Notes: generated by a model from the letters alone, not told the origin. DNA of 64,000 bases from Sulfitobacter sp. (GCA_047630275.1 JBLHVN010000002.1:135108-199107); one strand, 5' to 3'. Shown: positions 3,608-50,282, counted from the stretch's first letter. Numbers and translations are program-made.

Positions 3608-4533
3608 TAATACTTACCGTAGAATGAGAAGATCTTTTGGTCTTTCAGATAACTTTCTTTATATGTTTTTACTAAGAATCCAATCAAGACAATAAGGCTT
3701 TCAAAGCTAAGTTTATTATCATAAAAAGCTTTTATATTATCGTGGAGGTATTTTTTATCCCCCCCTTCTAGGTTTGTTTTAAAGTAGCCTGCGAGATGTT
3801 CAGCAACATTTGTTCGGTTCTTTGTTGTGATAGATTTTTTAAAAGCTGTACCGAATAAGTACTCTCCATACTCTTTGTACTTCTTAGAAAAATTAGTCTT
3901 AGTCACTCCTGCACAGATGCCCCCTAACTTTTTAACATGAACAGCGCCGTACTGATAAAGATAGTACTTATAAACTTCATGAAACTTAACCAGGGCCTTT
4001 GGCTCTTTAGGTAGCTCAGTAAATTCTTGATGAGTAAAGACTTGAGTCCTAAAGGTCTCACGAAGATGATCATCGTAAAGACGACCACTATCAATAATAG
4101 GGGTTAGTGGAAATTCTTTTTCTAAATGAGCTGCCCAAAGCCCTCTTTCTTTCTTAGTGGGGATTCCTGTTTTTTCATTATAAACCTTAACAGGATCATA
4201 GCCACAACTTGGAGAATTTCTCGTCAGGACAATCCCAGAGGCTTTTTCAATTCCCTTGGTATGGGTCTTAAAAGTTTTGAGGGCCAATTTGGTATGATCA
4301 ATAGAGGAATCTTTTGTATCCACTAAATGAGTAACTCCATCTTTATCCATCAACCTAATGGTCGGTCTTGGAATCCCAAGCCCCATGGCCACTTCAGGAC
4401 AAAAGGAAAGATACTCAAAGATCTTATCAAGTTCATGGACAACGTGAGGGTGTCTTTTATGTTGGCCATCATAGCGGATGGCCTCTCCAACAAGACAACC
4501 GCTAATAGCGACTATAGGCTTTTTTCTTTTCAT
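3607..4533 (-). CDS. DUF523 (TudS-like) plus DUF1722 (YbgA-like) fusion protein
   Basis: The N-terminus AISGCLVGEAIRYDG..NSPSCG is the DUF523 Cys pattern. The C-terminal half (FHEVYKYYLYQY..HLAGYFK) is YbgA/DUF1722-like. Confidence 0.65.
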   Translation of the reverse strand: MKRKKPIVAISGCLVGEAIRYDGQHKRHPHVVHELDKIFEYLSFCPEVAMGLGIPRPTIRLMDKDGVTHLVDTKDSSIDHTKLALKTFKTHTKGIEKASGIVLTRNSPSCGYDPVKVYNEKTGIPTKKERGLWAAHLEKEFPLTPIIDSGRLYDDHLRETFRTQVFTHQEFTELPKEPKALVKFHEVYKYYLYQYGAVHVKKLGGICAGVTKTNFSKKYKEYGEYLFGTAFKKSITTKNRTNVAEHLAGYFKTNLEGGDKKYLHDNIKAFYDNKLSFESLIVLIGFLVKTYKESYLKDQKIFSFYGKY

Positions 4534-4652
4534 CCTGCTAGACTAACCTAAATTCTTCAGATCATAAACCATTCTCCCCTAGACATTGGCCCTTCAAGGG
4601 GAATTCTTCCCTTTAGTTGCATAATATACTTAACAAAAGGATAATAATATTA

Positions 4653-42467: not shown

Positions 42468-43385
42468 GTGAATAAGATAGAGGAAATTCTTTGCAAGGTG
42501 ACAGGCTCTTCAGAGGTTAAGGCATCGGAGCTTATTCAAGAGCTTTGGAGTGGCTATGGAGAATTAAGCCGGGTCTTTCTAGATGATTCCTCGGTTATTC
42601 TAAAGTTAATCAATACTAACTCAGGCCTTGATCATCCTAGGGGCTGGAACTCTAGCCTCTCTCATAGGAGAAAAGAACTCTCCTATTTGATAGAACGAAA
42701 ATGGTATCAAGATTATAACTCTCCCATTGAAAAAGCGCTCTTACCACGACTAATCGATGCTGGAGAGGTTGATGGTTCTCAGTACTTAATTCTAGAGGAC
42801 TTAAAAGAATCGGGCTTTCACGTGAAGGCCTCTCTATCATGGAAAGAAATAAAGAGCTCTTTAAGCTGGCTCGCTAATTTTCACGCTCATCACCTAGGGA
42901 CTGATCCAAGAGACCTATGGCCCATAGGAACTTACTGGCACTTAGACACAAGGCCTGAAGAACTAAACACCCTAGAAGATATCAAGCTAAAAGAAGCGGC
43001 TCCTCTTATTGATAAGAAGTTAAACCAAGCAAAGCATAAGACTCTTGTTCACGGAGATGCAAAGCTAGCCAACTTTCTTTTCAATGATGATCAAGCAGCA
43101 GCTGTTGATTTTCAATACGTAGGGGGCGGCGTTGGCGTCAAGGACCTGGCCTACTTTTTAAGCAGCATCTATAGAGAAGAGGAATTATTTGATAAAGAAG
43201 ATGAGTGCTTAGACTTTTACTTTAAAGAATTAAACGCGGGTGCTGCAGTTGAGGCTGAATGGCGCGGGCTCTATCCCTATGCCTGGTGTGATTTCTACCG
43301 CTTCTTAAAAGGCTGGTCCCCAGGGCATTACAAACTCAACTCTTATTCTGAACAAATGACTGAGAAGGTATTAAAATGGCTTTAA
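42468..43385 (+). CDS. Phosphotransferase (APH/choline-kinase/EcKL-like) family protein
   Basis: GTG start. Brenner-type catalytic motif LVHGDAKLANFLF and a DFQYVGGG DxD-like motif. Confidence 0.65.
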   Translation: MNKIEEILCKVTGSSEVKASELIQELWSGYGELSRVFLDDSSVILKLINTNSGLDHPRGWNSSLSHRRKELSYLIERKWYQDYNSPIEKALLPRLIDAGEVDGSQYLILEDLKESGFHVKASLSWKEIKSSLSWLANFHAHHLGTDPRDLWPIGTYWHLDTRPEELNTLEDIKLKEAAPLIDKKLNQAKHKTLVHGDAKLANFLFNDDQAAAVDFQYVGGGVGVKDLAYFLSSIYREEELFDKEDECLDFYFKELNAGAAVEAEWRGLYPYAWCDFYRFLKGWSPGHYKLNSYSEQMTEKVLKWL

Positions 43386-44239
43386 CTAAGATTCAACTCA
43401 CCGAACTATCCCTTGTGGCAAAGAACGCCGCTCTTGCTGCTGGAAAGATCATCTCAGCTCAGCAAGGCTCAAGCGTTGAAGTTATGTCTAAAGAAGGGGG
43501 CGAGAATATCGCTTCGTGCGTAGTGACTGAGATCGACTTGGCCGCAGAGAAGGCCATCCTTGAAGTCCTCACTCCTACTCTAAAGCCCTATGACCTAGGT
43601 CTACTCACCGAGGAATCAACTGATGATAGCTCGCGCTTTGATCATGATAATTTTTGGTGCATTGATCCCCTTGATGGGACCTTATGTTTTAGCCGAGACG
43701 AAGATGGTTATTCAACCTCCATTGCCTTAGTGGCAAAGGATGGAATTCCTATCATTGGCGCTGTTTATAACCCTAGGTCTGATTCTCTTTATCACGCTAT
43801 TAAGGGTCACGGGGCCTTTAAGAATGACTCTCCCTTAGTGGCGCCTAAAGGATCAAAGGTCTTAACCCTCCTCTATGATATGAGTTATACAAAACACCCT
43901 CGTTATGAACAGCAGATAGAAAAGCTAAAGACTGACCTTGTTGAGCAAGGCTTAGAGTCTCTTAATATTCATCATTTAGGTGGCGCCGTCATGAACGGTA
44001 TCTCAACCATTGAAATGGCCCCTGCCCTTTATTATAAATTCCCTAAGAAAGCCGATGGGGGCGGAAGCCTTTGGGACTTTGCCGCAAGTTCTGTCATTCA
44101 ATCTGAAGCGGGCTGCTTTAATAGCGATTTTCATCAAGAGCCCCTTAAGCTTAACCGCTCTGAATCAACCTTTATGAATTTAGATGGTGTTATCTATGCA
44201 AGCTCTAAGGAATTATTAAACTTAATCCCAAAGATATAA
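43376..44239 (+). CDS. Inositol monophosphatase / CysQ family phosphatase
   Basis: LLTEES..WCIDPLDGT motif. It overlaps the upstream kinase-like gene by 10 nt. Confidence 0.8.
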   Translation: MALTKIQLTELSLVAKNAALAAGKIISAQQGSSVEVMSKEGGENIASCVVTEIDLAAEKAILEVLTPTLKPYDLGLLTEESTDDSSRFDHDNFWCIDPLDGTLCFSRDEDGYSTSIALVAKDGIPIIGAVYNPRSDSLYHAIKGHGAFKNDSPLVAPKGSKVLTLLYDMSYTKHPRYEQQIEKLKTDLVEQGLESLNIHHLGGAVMNGISTIEMAPALYYKFPKKADGGGSLWDFAASSVIQSEAGCFNSDFHQEPLKLNRSESTFMNLDGVIYASSKELLNLIPKI

Positions 44240-44242
44240 AAA

Positions 44243-44261
44243 GTGCCAGGACTCCTGGCAC
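44243..44261. terminator. Hairpin between convergent genes (probable bidirectional terminator)
   Basis: 8-bp stem gtgccagg/cctggcac with a 3-nt loop. It is flanked by an A-run upstream and a T-rich stretch downstream. Confidence 0.5.
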
Positions 44262-44268
44262 AAGTTTC

Positions 44269-44865
44269 TTATTCACAATTCTCAGACATGCCTAGTGGAA
44301 GATGAAAATTGTTTTCAACTTCTGCAAAGCTTAAGTTATCCCTATTGTCTAAAGATCCCCACACTCCATTGAATGTAGGGATGTCATTGATCTTAACTTT
44401 AACTGAAAGAAAGTTATTATTATCAAATTCTGGCTTGATAATCTCTGCAATGACAGCCCCTGAATCATCAAGTAATTCTAATGAAGCCGTGGCCTTATTC
44501 ACCGAATACTGGCCATCAATCACGATAGGATCTAAGTTCTCAGTCACTTGGTTTCTAGAAAGAGAATACTTATAGACCTTTAAAAGAAGTTGGTAAGAGC
44601 CATTTTCAAAGACATAGCCATGAAGATCATAAGAGTACTTTAGATCATCTCCAGCCGAGTTTAAACCTCCTACATTTTGCTCTTTTAATGAAGTCACGCG
44701 CCTAATACCGTTCTCACAAGTAGGCTTCACTTGAATCCGACTATAGAACTCCTCAAAGCTAATAAGCTTAGGTGTATTTACTGCTTCAGGGTTTTGCCCT
44801 AGAACATCTTTCTTTCCACAAGAAAAGATTATCGTTAACAAAAACATACCAACTAAGAATTTCAT
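44269..44865 (-). CDS. Lipoprotein translationally coupled to the MACPF-like gene
   Basis: Lipobox IIFSCG. Its ATG overlaps the upstream TAA (TAATG at 44863-44867). Confidence 0.6.
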   Translation of the reverse strand: MKFLVGMFLLTIIFSCGKKDVLGQNPEAVNTPKLISFEEFYSRIQVKPTCENGIRRVTSLKEQNVGGLNSAGDDLKYSYDLHGYVFENGSYQLLLKVYKYSLSRNQVTENLDPIVIDGQYSVNKATASLELLDDSGAVIAEIIKPEFDNNNFLSVKVKINDIPTFNGVWGSLDNRDNLSFAEVENNFHLPLGMSENCE

Positions 44866-46358
44866 TATATCTCTCGCTTTTCGCAGTTACCAAAGTCGTA
44901 CTGATCTAAAGAGTAGCTTTGTTCTGATCCCATATGATCGGTTACAATCATTTTGTAATCAGCATTGAACAGATCATCTAGATAGAGTTCTGATTCAAAC
45001 TTACTGTTTCTTTCTATAACACCGGCGAATCTATCGAGGCGCTCTGAGAAGGTCAAATCATGATAGCCAAAAGGTAATAAATACCGTCCAGAAGTGCTTG
45101 TTTTTACAAAGTTTACCTTGCGAATCAGGTCCCCATGAAGAAGATCTCCCTCTACAAACTTTGTATAAGAATCAAGCCCCCTTTCAGAGTAATAACAAAC
45201 CGATCTAAGCCTAGGGTTTCTGATAAAGTCAGTTGGCCAATCAACCTTAAAGTTAATAACTAAGAGCTCTTCAAGCTGACAGCGACCTTCTAAGAGACAA
45301 CGGTTAACAATGGACTCCATCTTTCTGTACTCTCGCCCAAAATTCCTTTGAGCGCTTTGAAAGTAAGCGATGCTTTTTTCCACACGGTCTGTTGGAATCT
45401 TTCTTAGGCTTTCAACTTCCTTTTTCAATCTTCTTATTTTGTTTTCATACTCAAGAGAAAGTAAGAAGGCCTTGTTTAAGAACTCTTGTCTTCTATGATC
45501 ATAGGCAGGAACCTCTAGACCAAATCTTTCCATGGAAACAAAGCTAAAACCAACCGCTGTAGAGGTGTTCTTATTCACTCCTCTCATAAGCTCTTTCATG
45601 GCGTTTAAAGTTTTTTGCAAATCATCTGAAGCGCCAAACTCATTCATACTCGTTGAACTGCCCCCAAGAGTGGTGACACTTAAAGAAGTCTGTCCGTATT
45701 TCTTAGCCAGGTTATAATTCTTCTCTAGGCTGGTTTTTAAAGACCCACTAAAACCTCCATAAGCCACGTCTCCGCCAAAAGCTACTGTTAAGTCTTTCTT
45801 CTTTTCAGAGTTAAGCTTAGACATGGTTAGCATGACATTTAAAACAACTTTTTGATCTGTGTTTTCAACAAAGTGAGTGCCGCATCTTTTTATAAATTCT
45901 TGATGCTTCCCTTCGTTGATTAAGGCCTGATACTTTTCTTTGAGAACAGGATTTAAAAGCTCTTTTTTTCCAAAGTTGTACTTGGCCTGAACTAAGTATG
46001 ATAGTGAGTCTTGATATGAGTGGTAATTCTTAATAAGCTTAGCGCTCATATTAGCGTTGGCGCTGATGAGCTTAAACTTTGCTTTAGCAGCGAGGTCTAC
46101 ACCAACAGAGAGGTTCTTTGTAAGATCACTTGATTCAGTGATCAACTTAGAGCCAAAGCTCATCTTAACCACGCCATCTTGAACGTCGGCCCAACGAACT
46201 GATTCATAGGTGAGGCAATTCTCTTTTCGACTAAAAGGTAAGTCTAAGTCGTAACTATTTCCTAATGAAAAGGGGGTGTCCTCTGAGTACAGCATCTTAA
46301 CATCTGCTTGTGAGTTCACTGAATAAAGCATGGCCCAGGCCAGTATTAATATTTTCAT
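44865..46358 (-). CDS. Secreted MACPF (perforin-like) domain protein
   Basis: AAGGAG RBS and a signal peptide. LLNPVLKEKYQALINEGKHQEFIKRCGTHFV matches the MACPF signature context (..Y..F...[YW]GTH[FY]). The downstream amphipathic Ser/Thr/Gly-rich stretches are compatible with TMH hairpins. The canonical GG after the signature is absent. Confidence 0.6.
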   Translation of the reverse strand: MKILILAWAMLYSVNSQADVKMLYSEDTPFSLGNSYDLDLPFSRKENCLTYESVRWADVQDGVVKMSFGSKLITESSDLTKNLSVGVDLAAKAKFKLISANANMSAKLIKNYHSYQDSLSYLVQAKYNFGKKELLNPVLKEKYQALINEGKHQEFIKRCGTHFVENTDQKVVLNVMLTMSKLNSEKKKDLTVAFGGDVAYGGFSGSLKTSLEKNYNLAKKYGQTSLSVTTLGGSSTSMNEFGASDDLQKTLNAMKELMRGVNKNTSTAVGFSFVSMERFGLEVPAYDHRRQEFLNKAFLLSLEYENKIRRLKKEVESLRKIPTDRVEKSIAYFQSAQRNFGREYRKMESIVNRCLLEGRCQLEELLVINFKVDWPTDFIRNPRLRSVCYYSERGLDSYTKFVEGDLLHGDLIRKVNFVKTSTSGRYLLPFGYHDLTFSERLDRFAGVIERNSKFESELYLDDLFNADYKMIVTDHMGSEQSYSLDQYDFGNCEKREI

Positions 46359-46381
46359 ATTATCTCCTTTAAAAATATTGA

Positions 46382-47599
46382 TTAAAATAAATCTCTTAAA
46401 TTTTCTTCTTTAAATTCGCTCCACTTAAGCTCTTGATCAACTGACTTTAAGAACTTGTTAGAATCAAACTCTGGAAAGTCTGGCATCTTATAAAAGCCCG
46501 TTATATTTTGAACGACCTCTCCTCTTTCACCATCAGATCCATACTTTCCTTTTTCACCCTTGAGTCCATTATCTCCTTGGCGCCCTTGCGCTCCCGTGGG
46601 TCCTGATCCCGCGTCGCCATTGGCAAGTTCACCTTCGCCACCAGATCCGCCAACTCCTCCTTGACCACCGATTCCTCCATTTCCTCCAGAACCAGCCGTT
46701 CCAGGAGAGCCACCGCGACCGCCAGGAACGTAAATATTTGGTGAGGTCCTAGGGATTATTTCTTCGTTTGGCACTTCACTATTCACTAAGACAAAGACAT
46801 CGCCACCGTCTCCACCTTTACCGCCATTACCGCCGTTTCCACCGTTTCCGCCATTGCCGCCGTTTCCACCTCTTCCGCCAGGACCTCCTGAGGAAGCTGA
46901 TTGACCAAGCCAACCATTGGCGTCGCCGCCTTTTCCACCGTGTCCGCCATTTCCGCCATTACCACCATTGCCGCCGGCACTGCCATGGCCTCCGCGTCCA
47001 CCGATTCCACCTATACTTTCAATATTGATAAGGGAGTCCCGGTCAAAAGCATCCGTACGGATATCAAGAGTGACGTTCTTTAATCCGCTCGCTCCTTTAA
47101 GGCCATCTTTTCCATCAAGGCCAACGCCTCCCTCAGTTCCACCCCCACCAGGTTGACCATCTCCAGAGCTTCTTCCAAGTCTTGCATCCGCCCCGTCCGC
47201 TCCATTTGCTCCACGGGTTCCGGCCTTTCCATGAGTAATATTTTCTTGATCAATCCCAGAAGCTCCGTCTCTATTTAAACGGTCTCCCGTAATTGAGATA
47301 TGCCCAGAGATAAACCTAGTCCGAAGCTGTAAGTGTGAATGGACCAATAGTTCAGATCCCTTTTCAAAGTAAACCTCATCACAAAGAATATTGATCTTCT
47401 TTGGGTCTTTTTTATCCGCCTCAGGGTTTATGATCTTAGCTTTTCCTATGATGGTTAAGCTCTTACAACGGAGGCTTGAAAATTCCCTCACCTCATCAAA
47501 CTCTCCACCAAGCCTGATGGAGTCTGCCACAATATTGACTTCCTCTGCTTGTAGGTTGCTTGAAAGTATTAAGGTTATTAGTAGTATTAATTTCTTCAT
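46382..47599 (-). CDS. Secreted collagen-like / GGX-repeat protein (paralog A)
   Basis: AAGGAG RBS and a signal peptide. G-X-Y runs ([15 protein letters not shown]; [29 protein letters not shown]) flank long GGN/GGH/GGK tracts. Confidence 0.7.
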
Positions 47600-47626
47600 C
47601 TTTATTTCTCCTTTTAGTTTTTATTT

Positions 47627-48775
47627 TTAATCAAGATCTATTGGCTCACTGACGCCTTTCCATTCAGTCCAGACATAGGGCTTGATCCTCGCTCCAGGTA
47701 ATCCATCTTTTCCCATTTTCCCAACTGATCCTTTTTCACCATGGCTTCCGGCCCTTCCTCCGGAACCACTTAACCCTGATGCTCCAGTGCTTCTCCACAG
47801 TGAACCGTCTCCACCACGTCCACCGCCGCCGCCAGCTCCTCTTACTCCAGGAACTCCGCCAGCTCCGGCCGTTGCTCCAACGCCCCCTCTTCCACCATAG
47901 TTTTCAATCTTAAAATCAATCTTCTTTAGCTTGTTTTTCTTTAACCACTTCTCTGGTTTATAGATGATATAGACGCCACCGCCGTTTCCACCATCACCGC
48001 CATCTCCGCCGTCACCGCCATTTCCACCGTGACCAGCATTTCCGCCAGCTCCGCCATGACCGCCGCGAGAAGCGCCATAGCCATATTTACCCGCGCCACC
48101 AGAGCCCCCATTTCCACCGCGGCCACCATCTCCACCAGCACCACCGTCTCCACCGGGTCCACCGACTTGACCATTTTCTCCATGAGAATAGATTTCAATT
48201 GAATTCACTTTCTTTACTTCTTTAAAACTAAGTAAGACGCTAAATCCGTTAGATCCATTCAATCCAAGGGCCCCTTTTTTTCCATCAACACCTCTTGATC
48301 CATGACCACCAGCCTTGCCATTTTGCCCCCCATGAGAGCCCCAGCACTTTGGAGGTTTTGGAAACTTAAACTCACAATGAGCGCTTCTCCCCCCAGCGCC
48401 TCCGCTACCATTGCTGCCATTTGAGGCTTTTGCTAGTTTGGCTAAGCTGGTTGGAACACCATGGATTCTTTTATTGCGAGATTCAATTAAAACATCTCCG
48501 GTTAGAAGAATTGTTTCAATATAGCTGTCACCCTTTATGATGAGCTTACTTCCCTCTAGAAATTCAATGCTCTGACACTTGATCTCCATGAGTTCATTTT
48601 CTTTTAATTTTTCTTTAGGAGTTATGCTCACTTCGTTTTCAATAACGAGAGATTCGCATTTAAAGTCTTTGCTGATGAAAACTTCTTCATCATTTAATCT
48701 AAGTCTTCCCGCAAAGGCCGTGCTTAAGCTCATCAAGATTGCTGCAGACAAGGCAGCTGTCTTTAAATAATTCAT
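47627..48775 (-). CDS. Secreted collagen-like / GGX-repeat protein (paralog B)
   Basis: AAAGGA RBS before the ATG at 48775 (MNYLKTAALSAAILMSLSTAFA). It has the same layout as paralog A: an N-terminal Cys-containing beta-rich domain, G-X-Y runs (GSRGVDGKKGALGLNGSNG; GSHGEKGSVGKMGKDGLPGAR) and GGX tracts. Confidence 0.7.
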   Translation of the reverse strand: MNYLKTAALSAAILMSLSTAFAGRLRLNDEEVFISKDFKCESLVIENEVSITPKEKLKENELMEIKCQSIEFLEGSKLIIKGDSYIETILLTGDVLIESRNKRIHGVPTSLAKLAKASNGSNGSGGAGGRSAHCEFKFPKPPKCWGSHGGQNGKAGGHGSRGVDGKKGALGLNGSNGFSVLLSFKEVKKVNSIEIYSHGENGQVGGPGGDGGAGGDGGRGGNGGSGGAGKYGYGASRGGHGGAGGNAGHGGNGGDGGDGGDGGNGGGVYIIYKPEKWLKKNKLKKIDFKIENYGGRGGVGATAGAGGVPGVRGAGGGGGRGGDGSLWRSTGASGLSGSGGRAGSHGEKGSVGKMGKDGLPGARIKPYVWTEWKGVSEPIDLD

Positions 48776-49064
48776 CTTATTTCCTTTGTTCAATCTCTTC
48801 ATTTTTAATGTGGGTGGAACTTAGAAAAGATTTGATGGGATTAAAAAAAGAAAACGAATTTCATGGTTTTTCTTATTCAGTTGATTATTCTTAGGGGGCC
48901 TAATCAATTATCTAATTGAATTCACGTTTAAGATTAACCAGATGATTAACAAAATAGACCAGTCAGTATTCAATGATCAGCTGTAGAGGTATTAGTCATC
49001 TCAAAGGCCATAAGTGCCTGTTTTTAAGATCAATTAATGGCCTAATTCCTGCAATATTAAAGGC

Positions 49065-50282
49065 ATGTCTTTTATAAAACGCTCATTCATCTTGATGTTG
49101 ATCGCTCTTGTGAGTCTTTCCACTCTTATAGCTAAAGAGGTGGTCCTGTATGAAAACGCTAAGCAGGTTCCTGATTATGAAGCGCGCTTAAAGTCTATTG
49201 CCCCTGGGGATGAATTGATCTTCAGCGATAATCAAAGGCTCACCATCGTCAAAAAGCTCGGCCAAGGGGGAAGCTCTCAGATCTTTGAGACCTCCACAGG
49301 AAAAGCAGTTCGGCTCACCAATTACTATAGAACTGGATCTTATTTTAATGGTTATTTAAGCGCGGCCTTAAAGCTTCAAAAATCAGATTTTCTCCTTTTA
49401 CCTGAACTCTTTGACCGCCAAAGTAATATCAAAGAATACCTCTTAGTTGAAAAGGTCGACGTTTTGTTCACAATGGAAGACTTTCTCAAAGGGAATTACC
49501 AATCAGACCTATCAAAGACTCAGCTTGAATCTAAGATCTTTGACTTTGCTGAAACCACAGCACAACTTGATACTATCAGGGATTTTAAACCGGCCAATAT
49601 TGTTTGGGACGGTGATCAGTGGCGCCTCTTAGATTTTGACGATGGTCCTATCTTTGCTTCAGGCCCTAATGATAGTACGGTTTTTGACTACGCCCCTAAG
49701 CAGGGTAAGTATATGCGAGAGCTTCCTGAGGATATGATCGCAAGAATAAATGAGCGCATCAAAGAAGTTAGGGCCAGTGCGGGATTTACCTTCATTCAAA
49801 ATACAAGAGAGGCCTTAGAGTCAAAAAAAGAAGCTCTCAAAGAAACCTCACGCCTTAAAAAGAAGGCCAAAGAGCTGCCTACTTCAGTCCTTGTTGATGA
49901 TGATATAGATTCCTTTTTAAAACACGCCAAGAAAATGAGTGTGCCTCAAAGAATGGAAATGTATAAGAACTGGAGCGAGAGGCTCTTGCATCACGCCTAT
50001 AAAGATCCTTCGATCCTAAAGCATATTCAAATCTATAATGCTATTAATATGAATCATCTTGGAAATCCATATGTCCTCGTTCACGACGCTCTATCGCAAC
50101 AGAATAAGAACCTACAAGATATAATCTACTATATGAAGGCCTATGGATTAAAGAATTCTTCGAAGATCTTTGAAGACGAATTACTCGGTCCTATCCGCCA
50201 GTATGAATCTCTTCATGGAAAAGTACGACAGCCCCTTACCAAAAGAAGCTGCCGTACACTCCTGCGTGGCCTTTTTCTTTAG
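49065..50282 (+). CDS. Secreted protein-kinase-like protein
   Basis: Signal peptide MSFIKRSFILMLIALVSLSTLIA. Gly-loop LGQGGSSQIFE, catalytic loop RDFKPANIVW (D-x-K-x-x-N) and LLDFDDG (DFG-like). The C-terminal half is helical. Confidence 0.55.
   Translation: MSFIKRSFILMLIALVSLSTLIAKEVVLYENAKQVPDYEARLKSIAPGDELIFSDNQRLTIVKKLGQGGSSQIFETSTGKAVRLTNYYRTGSYFNGYLSAALKLQKSDFLLLPELFDRQSNIKEYLLVEKVDVLFTMEDFLKGNYQSDLSKTQLESKIFDFAETTAQLDTIRDFKPANIVWDGDQWRLLDFDDGPIFASGPNDSTVFDYAPKQGKYMRELPEDMIARINERIKEVRASAGFTFIQNTREALESKKEALKETSRLKKKAKELPTSVLVDDDIDSFLKHAKKMSVPQRMEMYKNWSERLLHHAYKDPSILKHIQIYNAINMNHLGNPYVLVHDALSQQNKNLQDIIYYMKAYGLKNSSKIFEDELLGPIRQYESLHGKVRQPLTKRSCRTLLRGLFL

Follow-up and report, generated by a model that had tools for sequence, protein, structure and literature searches.

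A MACPF/CDC-fold protein encoded beside glycine-rich repeat proteins: a possible multi-component pore-forming system in Bdellovibrionota and Alphaproteobacteria

Few multi-component systems of the MACPF/CDC superfamily have been described (complement, pleurotolysin, and the CDCLs), and each has shed light on the targeting and nucleation of pores. The CDCL systems of Bacteroidota are short operons, associated with mobile elements and exported towards other bacteria, in which a pore former of this superfamily is accompanied by partners and by the surface lipoprotein BcdI, which blocks the pore (Abrahamsen et al. 2024, PMC11169675). In the aegerolysin and MACPF pairs (e.g., pleurotolysin A/B; Alcaligenes AfIP-1A/1B, PMC5465095), a non-MACPF partner, a 15-kDa beta-sandwich, binds the target membrane first. 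The single-chain bacterial MACPFs (e.g., Plu-MACPF, 2qp2; BT_3439, 3kk7; GNIP1Aa, 6fbm; Mpf2Ba1, 8b6u; BSAP-1) are secreted antagonistic or insecticidal proteins that are recognised by PF01823 and act alone. The locus described here lies within 64,000 nucleotides of DNA deposited as Sulfitobacter sp. (GCA_047630275.1, JBLHVN010000002.1:135108-199107; this whole stretch is hereafter the window, and coordinates are window positions unless another locus is named); the bacterium that carries it is a Halobacteriovorax-like predator. The locus comprises four minus-strand genes (g1-g4), in which the gene for a MACPF/CDC-fold protein follows two genes for glycine-rich repeat proteins and precedes a lipoprotein gene:

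47627..48775, minus strand: g1, glycine-rich protein, type A, 382 aa from the ATG at 48775
46382..47599, minus strand: g2, glycine-rich protein, type B, 405 aa
44865..46358, minus strand: g3, MACPF/CDC-fold protein, 497 aa
44269..44865, minus strand: g4, lipoprotein, 198 aa, lipobox IIFS/C (a slash marks the cleavage site throughout)
44243..44261, minus strand: terminator hairpin, 8 bp with 6 GC pairs and a 3-nt loop, followed by TTTTTAT
48800..48862, minus strand: block 5' of g1 (…TTTTCTAAGTTCCACCCACATTAAAAAT), conserved in a pairwise DNA alignment with a related locus, L003

With a probability of roughly 0.55, these genes encode a Sec-exported, multi-component pore-forming system that is spread horizontally and used in antagonism, in which g3 would supply the pore, the glycine-rich rods would be its partners, and g4 would provide protection or a tether. 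The resemblance to the CDCL systems lies in the superfamily of the pore former, the short operon, the presence of partners and a surface lipoprotein, the mobile elements, and export towards bacteria. However, the CDCL partners are two adjacent CDCL paralogs, both of them lipoproteins, whereas a local hmmsearch of the window found one MACPF-like gene, its product bearing a signal peptidase I (SPI) signal peptide and its neighbouring glycine-repeat partners being unrelated to it. Compared with the aegerolysin pairs, the putative partners here are proteins of ~400 aa with a Cys-containing head and six glycine tracts, and any dependence of g3 upon them is putative. No paper linking a MACPF protein to glycine-rich or collagen-like partners, or to Bdellovibrio or Halobacteriovorax biology, was found in full-text literature searches, in agreement with the first-pass annotation of this DNA, which knew of no described system pairing a MACPF protein with glycine-rich fibres.

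Fold and profile both place the g3 protein in the MACPF/CDC superfamily, and it lies below the Pfam threshold. Searched alone, it matches no Pfam family at E<=1, no NCBIfam model, and no PDB entry (single-sequence search), an outcome that the first-pass annotation had anticipated when it proposed this fold for the 497-aa product and warned that a hidden Markov model (HMM) might miss it. A word-indexed search returned 2 homologs and an exhaustive HMMER search 485; an identical protein is present in NCBI from a Bacteriovoracaceae metagenome-assembled genome (MAG), and a 90%-identical copy in a Halobacteriovorax MAG. A family profile built from 128 relatives of g3 matched, in the PDB, Mpf2Ba1 (E=1.8e-5), stonustoxin (8.9e-5), Aeg-L (the Aegerolysin-L pore 9uj0; 3e-4), and C9 (0.03), while PF01823 was weakly matched by 4 of 90 relatives (best 1.9e-5) and the CDC family PF01289 by one. 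An AlphaFold2 (AF2) model from a 2-sequence alignment was not usable (predicted local distance difference test score, pLDDT, 43), but a model from 90 sequences reached a pLDDT of 89.8 and a predicted template modelling score (pTM) of 0.86. The Foldseek comparison of this model with the PDB gave 54 matches at E<1e-3, all 54 of them MACPF/CDC proteins, including stonustoxin (E=8e-8), astrotactin-2, C9, C8, perforin, Plu-MACPF, BT_3439, GNIP1Aa, Mpf2Ba1, PlyB, TgPLP1, PFO, and EaCDCL (EaCDCL-S, 9ccq); in a viral structure library, the best 6 matches of the model were giant-virus MACPFs. These results demonstrate that g3 has a MACPF/CDC fold and comes from a family without standard annotation. The bent core sheet and two helical clusters that the first-pass annotation had told a reader to look for are both visible in the model, whose features, together with those read from the sequence, are as follows:

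g3 N-terminus: signal peptide, ...NSQA/D
g3 residues 65-73, 119-135, 162-180, 223-231, and 267-275: strands of the core sheet (AF2 model)
g3 residues 76-111 and 184-221: helical clusters, putative transmembrane hairpins TMH1 and TMH2 (AF2 model)
g3 residues 159-163: CGTHF motif
g3 residues 288-357: long helical hairpin, with C354/C360 (AF2 model)
g3 residues 379-488: C-terminal beta-sandwich (AF2 model)

The motif KYQALINEGKHQEFIKRCGTHFV is present in g3, and its relatives show little or no variation at C159, G160, T161, and H162, the last three being invariant in the close ones. The MACPF signature (Y/W-G-T/S-H-F/Y-x6-G-G) is incomplete in its second half, with K-V in place of the GG; the GG of Mpf2Ba1 aligns with a separate, near-invariant G232-G233 located after core strand 4. 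Since C48, C159, C354, and C360 are near-invariant in the alignment of relatives, an exported, oxidising location is consistent with the sequence. The family-averaged hydrophobic moment of period 2 (beta-type) peaks at residues 86-91, 102-104, 193-195, and 206-208, where it exceeds the alpha moment, whereas the genuine helices of g3 have alpha periodicity. This is the pattern expected of helical clusters able to refold into amphipathic transmembrane beta-hairpins, and it points to a predicted capacity as distinct from a demonstrated activity. Between the MACPF core and the beta-sandwich, residues 288-357 form a two-helix hairpin carrying the C354, C360 pair at its tip, for which the similarity found consisted of weak profile matches to coiled coils. 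The single-chain bacterial MACPFs, which are amongst the Foldseek matches, share the core and the C-terminal beta-sandwich; g3 differs from them in being invisible to Pfam, in the 70-residue helical hairpin insert with its Cys pair, in the missing GG, and in its synteny with glycine-rich genes.

The association of g3 with the glycine-rich genes extends well beyond the window. A locus search seeded with a 5-sequence g3 alignment returned 5 loci, and the four-gene order recurs in three other Bacteriovoracaceae loci (g3 identity is relative to the window copy):

L003 (Halobacteriovorax relative): g3 identity 90%; right flank shared with the window, left flank different
L001: g3 identity 38%; flanks differ from the window
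L004: g3 identity 34%; flanks differ from the window

When eight glycine-rich homologs were picked without knowledge of their neighbours and their contexts were scanned by local HMM searches, a g3-family gene was found directly downstream of the glycine-rich gene(s) in six of them (products in gene order):

L010 (B. bacteriovorus; CP168969, ~1.4617-1.4658 Mb): 423 -> 405 -> 524 aa
L008 (Bradyrhizobium): 401 -> 539 -> OmpA-domain protein of 491 aa
L011 (Ruegeria): 408 -> 390 -> 571 -> lipoprotein of 162 aa
L013 (Neorhizobium): 381 -> 368 -> 392 -> 556 -> secreted protein of 170 aa
L015 (metagenome, ENA): 433 -> 422 -> 563 aa
L016 (GCA_028285085.1): 417 -> 546 aa

One to three glycine-rich genes thus precede the g3-family gene at each locus. 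Bdellovibrionota and Alphaproteobacteria together provide at least 10 loci with the pairing; the adjoining genes overlap or are 3-30 nt apart, g3-family identity drops to ~20%, and the flanking genes are unrelated. It follows that the glycine-rich protein(s) and the MACPF-like protein make up the conserved core and that the lipoprotein lies outside it; the co-conservation of all four genes envisaged earlier holds for L001, L003, and L004, but beyond these loci g4 is replaced or missing. Several alphaproteobacterial copies sit in accessory or defence-island settings, adjoining genes for IS21 IstB, a Cap4-nuclease fragment, JetA/JetB, a phage-type integrase, a resolvase, or Trypsin_2/Trypco1 proteins; mobile or defence-island settings of this kind were recorded at L013 3250-13107 (Neorhizobium), L008 4053-5219, L011 3574-4212, and L016 1-3329. 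Because the pairing occurs in non-predatory Alphaproteobacteria beside mobile-element genes, the module is not specific to predation, and a weapon peculiar to predation, one of the uses suggested when the module was first noticed, is not the favoured reading.

Four genes under constraint are also indicated by pairwise comparison of the window genes with their L003 orthologs (protein identity, nonsynonymous divergence dN, and its ratio to synonymous divergence, dN/dS), with one gene flanking the module, encoding an inositol-monophosphatase-family protein (IMPase), given alongside:

g1: identity 79.6%, dN 0.134, dN/dS 0.15
g2: identity 76.3%, dN 0.168, dN/dS 0.13
g3: identity 89.9%, dN 0.058, dN/dS 0.05
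g4: identity 52.5%, dN 0.36, dN/dS <=0.15 (dS saturated)
IMPase (flanking): identity 90.6%, dN 0.067, dN/dS 0.08

These ratios show purifying selection on all four genes, as judged from a sequence comparison of two loci.

Alignment establishes g1 and g2 as paralogs from a widespread family of proteins of ~400 aa. Together with the two L001 orthologs they align end to end in a four-way alignment, in accordance with the shared layout described in the first-pass annotation, and the non-significant BLASTP comparison of g1 with g2 is attributable to composition correction. Both have a signal peptide and a head in which two Cys are invariant, along with six tracts, in three pairs, with Gly at a period of three, and two beta-like linkers; in g1 the first turn holds a Cys-bracketed loop (CEFKFPKPPKC). 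The six tracts of either protein are 9-10 triplets long, Pro amounts to 3%, and Gly is the commonest residue at X and Y as well; G-X-Y triplets with charged residues make up the outermost tracts and GGX the central ones, and GGX prevails overall. The earlier description of "true" collagen triplets is accordingly correct as to the period of Gly and doubtful as to the rest. The sole Pfam match of g2 is Collagen (PF01391), at 15.7 bits against a cut-off of 27.2, and g1 is unmatched by that model, being recognised by a local family HMM. The 514 relatives yielded by a family profile search, mostly of 380-450 aa and labelled hypothetical or 'collagen-like', come from Bradyrhizobium, Ruegeria, Neorhizobium, Yoonia, B. 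bacteriovorus, and Photorhabdus; the head gave no PDB match with the family profile. Tract length is constant at ~10-11 triplets across ~75 homologs, and the linkers alternate between short and long (medians 10, 22, 9, 24, and 9 aa for the 28 proteins whose six tracts are all clean).

This geometry favours an intramolecular antiparallel bundle, since such a bundle requires matched segment lengths and alternating turns and a serial collagen fibre needs neither. The repeats of g1 and g2 would thus fit an intramolecular polyproline-II (PPII)/polyglycine-II rod better than collagen, and they contain what characterises these bundles, namely a number of GGX/GXX segments that match in length and are connected by turns. 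The segments of known bundles are much shorter than the ~30 residues of those in g1 and g2. The described PPII bundles (snow-flea antifreeze protein, phage S16 gp38, PE_PGRS; 10.1101/2023.11.25.568672, PMC9436101) likewise have GGX/GXX repeats in equal segments with short turns, and are high in Gly and low in Pro; g1 and g2 are set apart by the two-Cys head and the link to a pore former, and their bundle fold is putative. At the rise of 3.1 A per residue reported for PPII bundles (bioRxiv 10.1101/2023.11.25.568672), six antiparallel PPII/polyglycine-II helices of ~30 residues, arranged as three hairpins, would form a rod of ~9 nm, with the head, the two beta-hairpin linkers, and the tail at the same end. 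Between the window and L003, substitutions in g1 and g2 cluster in the head and first tract pair while the GGX core is near invariant, and the variable parts may carry specificity. Bacterial collagen-like proteins (Scl1/2, BclA; PF01391) share with g1 and g2 the Gly at every third position, charged outer tracts, and an N-terminal globular domain, but g1 and g2 are sub-threshold for that family, interrupted every 10 triplets, fixed in length, and GGX in the centre. A reading of the GGxGxD-like strings as RTX repeats exported by a type I secretion system was ruled out from the sequence by the Sec signal peptides and by the lack of a nonapeptide pattern. A distant branch of the glycine-rich family is represented in Photorhabdus antumapuensis by five tandem paralogs of 432-457 aa (L012 1261-10659), which lack both an obvious signal peptide and a MACPF-like neighbour, and suggests that the repeat scaffold has a further use in a different setting.

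The g4 product is a predicted outer-membrane lipoprotein. Its lipoboxes in the L003, L001, and L004 loci are LTVS/C, IFIS/C, and LIIA/C, respectively; C16, C50, and C197 are invariant across the four loci; and the residue after the lipobox Cys is Gly, which under the E. coli rule directs sorting to the outer membrane. Homologs were found only in the four Bacteriovoracaceae loci, which confines g4 to the Halobacteriovorax group, and a database search of 5.8 billion proteins gave only 3 clusters. Elsewhere the final position of the module is empty or is taken by a small secreted protein, an OmpA-domain protein, or a lipoprotein unrelated to g4. The protein evolves ~6x faster than g3 (dN 0.36 vs 0.058). 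Because fast divergence, replaceability, and translational coupling are typical of immunity and adaptor genes, the most likely role of g4, by analogy, would be immunity or anchoring, such that it would protect the producer as BcdI does for CDCLs, or tether the pore former. The likeness to BcdI is functional only, and g4 lies downstream of the pore former whereas BcdI lies upstream. Where a fourth gene is absent, immunity may be either not universally needed or encoded elsewhere.

A single operon is the best explanation for the arrangement of the four genes. As noted in the first-pass annotation, the four open reading frames lie no more than 27 nt apart (gaps of 27 nt for g1-g2 and 23 nt for g2-g3) and all four products read as exported, with SPI signal peptides in g1 (...STAFA/G), g2 (...NLQA/E), and g3 and a lipobox in g4; a hydrophobic N-terminus is present in 139 of 151 relatives. 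The g3 stop and g4 start share a base (TAATG), and the stoichiometric co-production formerly deduced from this overlap may be regarded as conjecture. AAGGAG-type ribosome-binding sites had been assigned to all four genes, but AAGGAG precedes only g2 (8 nt upstream of the start) and g3, with AAGGAA at g1 and only GAGAG at g4. The module closes, as had been proposed, at the GC-rich hairpin and T-run of 44243-44261, a bidirectional terminator common to the module and the convergent IMPase gene, and a terminator scan found no other minus-strand terminator-like site within the unit. The longest g1 reading frame extends to an alternative ATG at 48802; the start at 48775 is favoured because the L003 ortholog begins at the equivalent Met and because 48802 falls inside the block conserved with L003, which was called non-coding. 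That block (48800-48862) is a candidate promoter or 5' leader of g1, a function put forward from conservation, since a consensus sigma-70 scan called no promoter there.

Several features of the surroundings were also recorded. L003 has a GC-rich hairpin and T-run at ~4488-4557, separating the conserved block from the g1 start codon, that the window lacks; it may represent a leader, attenuator, or inserted element. Downstream in the window (42468-44239, plus strand), an EcKL/APH-type kinase gene (305 aa) overlaps by 10 nt the start of the IMPase gene, and this pair, which converges on the module, is kept beside it in L003 and not in L001 or L004. Upstream (49065-50282, plus strand) lies the divergent kinase-like gene that the first-pass annotation had mentioned, encoding a 405-aa protein, a possible secreted atypical kinase, with a signal peptide, kinase-like motifs (LGQGGSSQ, DFKPANIVW, and LLDFDDG), and APH as its sole Pfam match (E=0.39); the gene is present as stated, but it was ruled out as part of the module because it is not syntenic in L003, where the module is 90% identical. 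Divergent gene pairs stand upstream in L003 (3056-4232) and L004 (3203-4386), each comprising a helix-turn-helix (HTH) protein of ~270 aa and a secreted protein of ~125 aa that ends in a Gly run (GGTDGGGG or GGDAGGG), and in B. bacteriovorus a DUF4423 protein is encoded directly upstream (L010 6082-6888). A dedicated regulator was dropped from consideration, as the DUF4423 and HTH genes have no mutual BLAST similarity and are absent from the window.

Under the favoured reading of the module as a multi-component pore-forming system, g3 would oligomerise and insert a beta-barrel pore into a target membrane, and the rods would serve as its partners, recognising the surface of the target and/or nucleating assembly of the pore, in the manner of aegerolysin for pleurotolysin B (PlyB and Aeg-L being structural or profile matches of g3), CDCL-L for CDCL-S, or C5b-8 for C9. 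Its use would be antagonism of other cells, whether bacteria or grazers, carried horizontally and not specific to predation. Pore function and an interaction of g1 and g2 with g3 are proposed on the grounds of fold, synteny, and analogy, and several observations weigh against them. The g3 protein itself misses PF01823 and is without the signature GG, and MACPF proteins that do not form pores exist (review, PMC5483515). In the PDB, the glycine-rich family profile finds collagens and C1q stalks alone, through periodicity. No fourth gene is present in B. bacteriovorus, L015, or L016; the Yoonia and Photorhabdus contexts hold glycine-rich genes only; distant g3 relatives (L005-L007, 627-652 aa) stand alone; and no fusion between the two families occurs amongst the 151 relatives. 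Finally, g3 was unmatched in plasmid and phage collections, PADLOC gave no model match, and PHROGs nothing meaningful, negatives that neither support nor reject a role in conflict.

Some of these observations would be accommodated by a non-lytic envelope module, in which g3 and the rods are coat, vesicle, or attachment parts of the producer surface and no toxin is involved. The existence of non-pore MACPF proteins, astrotactin-2 amongst the Foldseek matches, the missing GG, the lipoprotein or OmpA-domain protein in fourth position at several loci, and the lack of a nearby secretion system all agree with it, yet it is unlikely given the conserved beta-type amphipathicity in both helical clusters, the fast divergence of the fourth gene, and a patchy, mobile-element-linked distribution typical of accessory weapons. 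The glycine-rich proteins could instead be collagen-type trimeric fibres on a predator surface that deliver the MACPF protein to prey, with the lipoprotein as anchor; here the period of Gly in all tracts, the charged outer G-X-Y tracts, the alignment to collagens and C1q stalks, the weak Pfam match, a Bacteriovoracaceae predator as host, and two paralogs able to make heterotrimers would find a place. That account is nonetheless quite improbable, as Pro makes up just 3% and GGX fills the central tracts, the tracts are fixed at ~10 triplets with alternating linkers across phyla where bacterial collagens such as Scl and BclA vary in length, the module occurs in non-predatory Bradyrhizobium, Ruegeria, and Neorhizobium, and B. 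bacteriovorus has no lipoprotein. It is very improbable that the glycine-rich proteins are simply co-located cargo (secreted adhesins, or antifreeze- or biofilm-type proteins) with no partnership with g3: although the Yoonia and Photorhabdus homologs lack a MACPF-like gene, the L005-L007 relatives are solitary, and fusions are wanting, the strict order and adjacency persist across 10 loci in two phyla despite ~20% g3-family identity and unrelated flanks.

The 485 detectable relatives of g3 constitute a new MACPF family that no standard annotation recognises. If the glycine-rich proteins are indeed long PPII bundles, the small set of natural PPII bundles would grow and would acquire a role in membrane attack. 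A bolder and still doubtful suggestion is that PPII/polyglycine-II rods form a new class of subunit for target recognition and for nucleation of a Pfam-invisible MACPF protein, as part of a horizontally mobile, complement-like attack complex with lineage-specific immunity proteins in Proteobacteria/Bdellovibrionota, predators and non-predators alike. The view of this module as a predation device is corrected to that of an accessory mobile module shared with rhizobia and roseobacters, and its presence in Bdellovibrio bacteriovorus offers a genetically tractable test bed.

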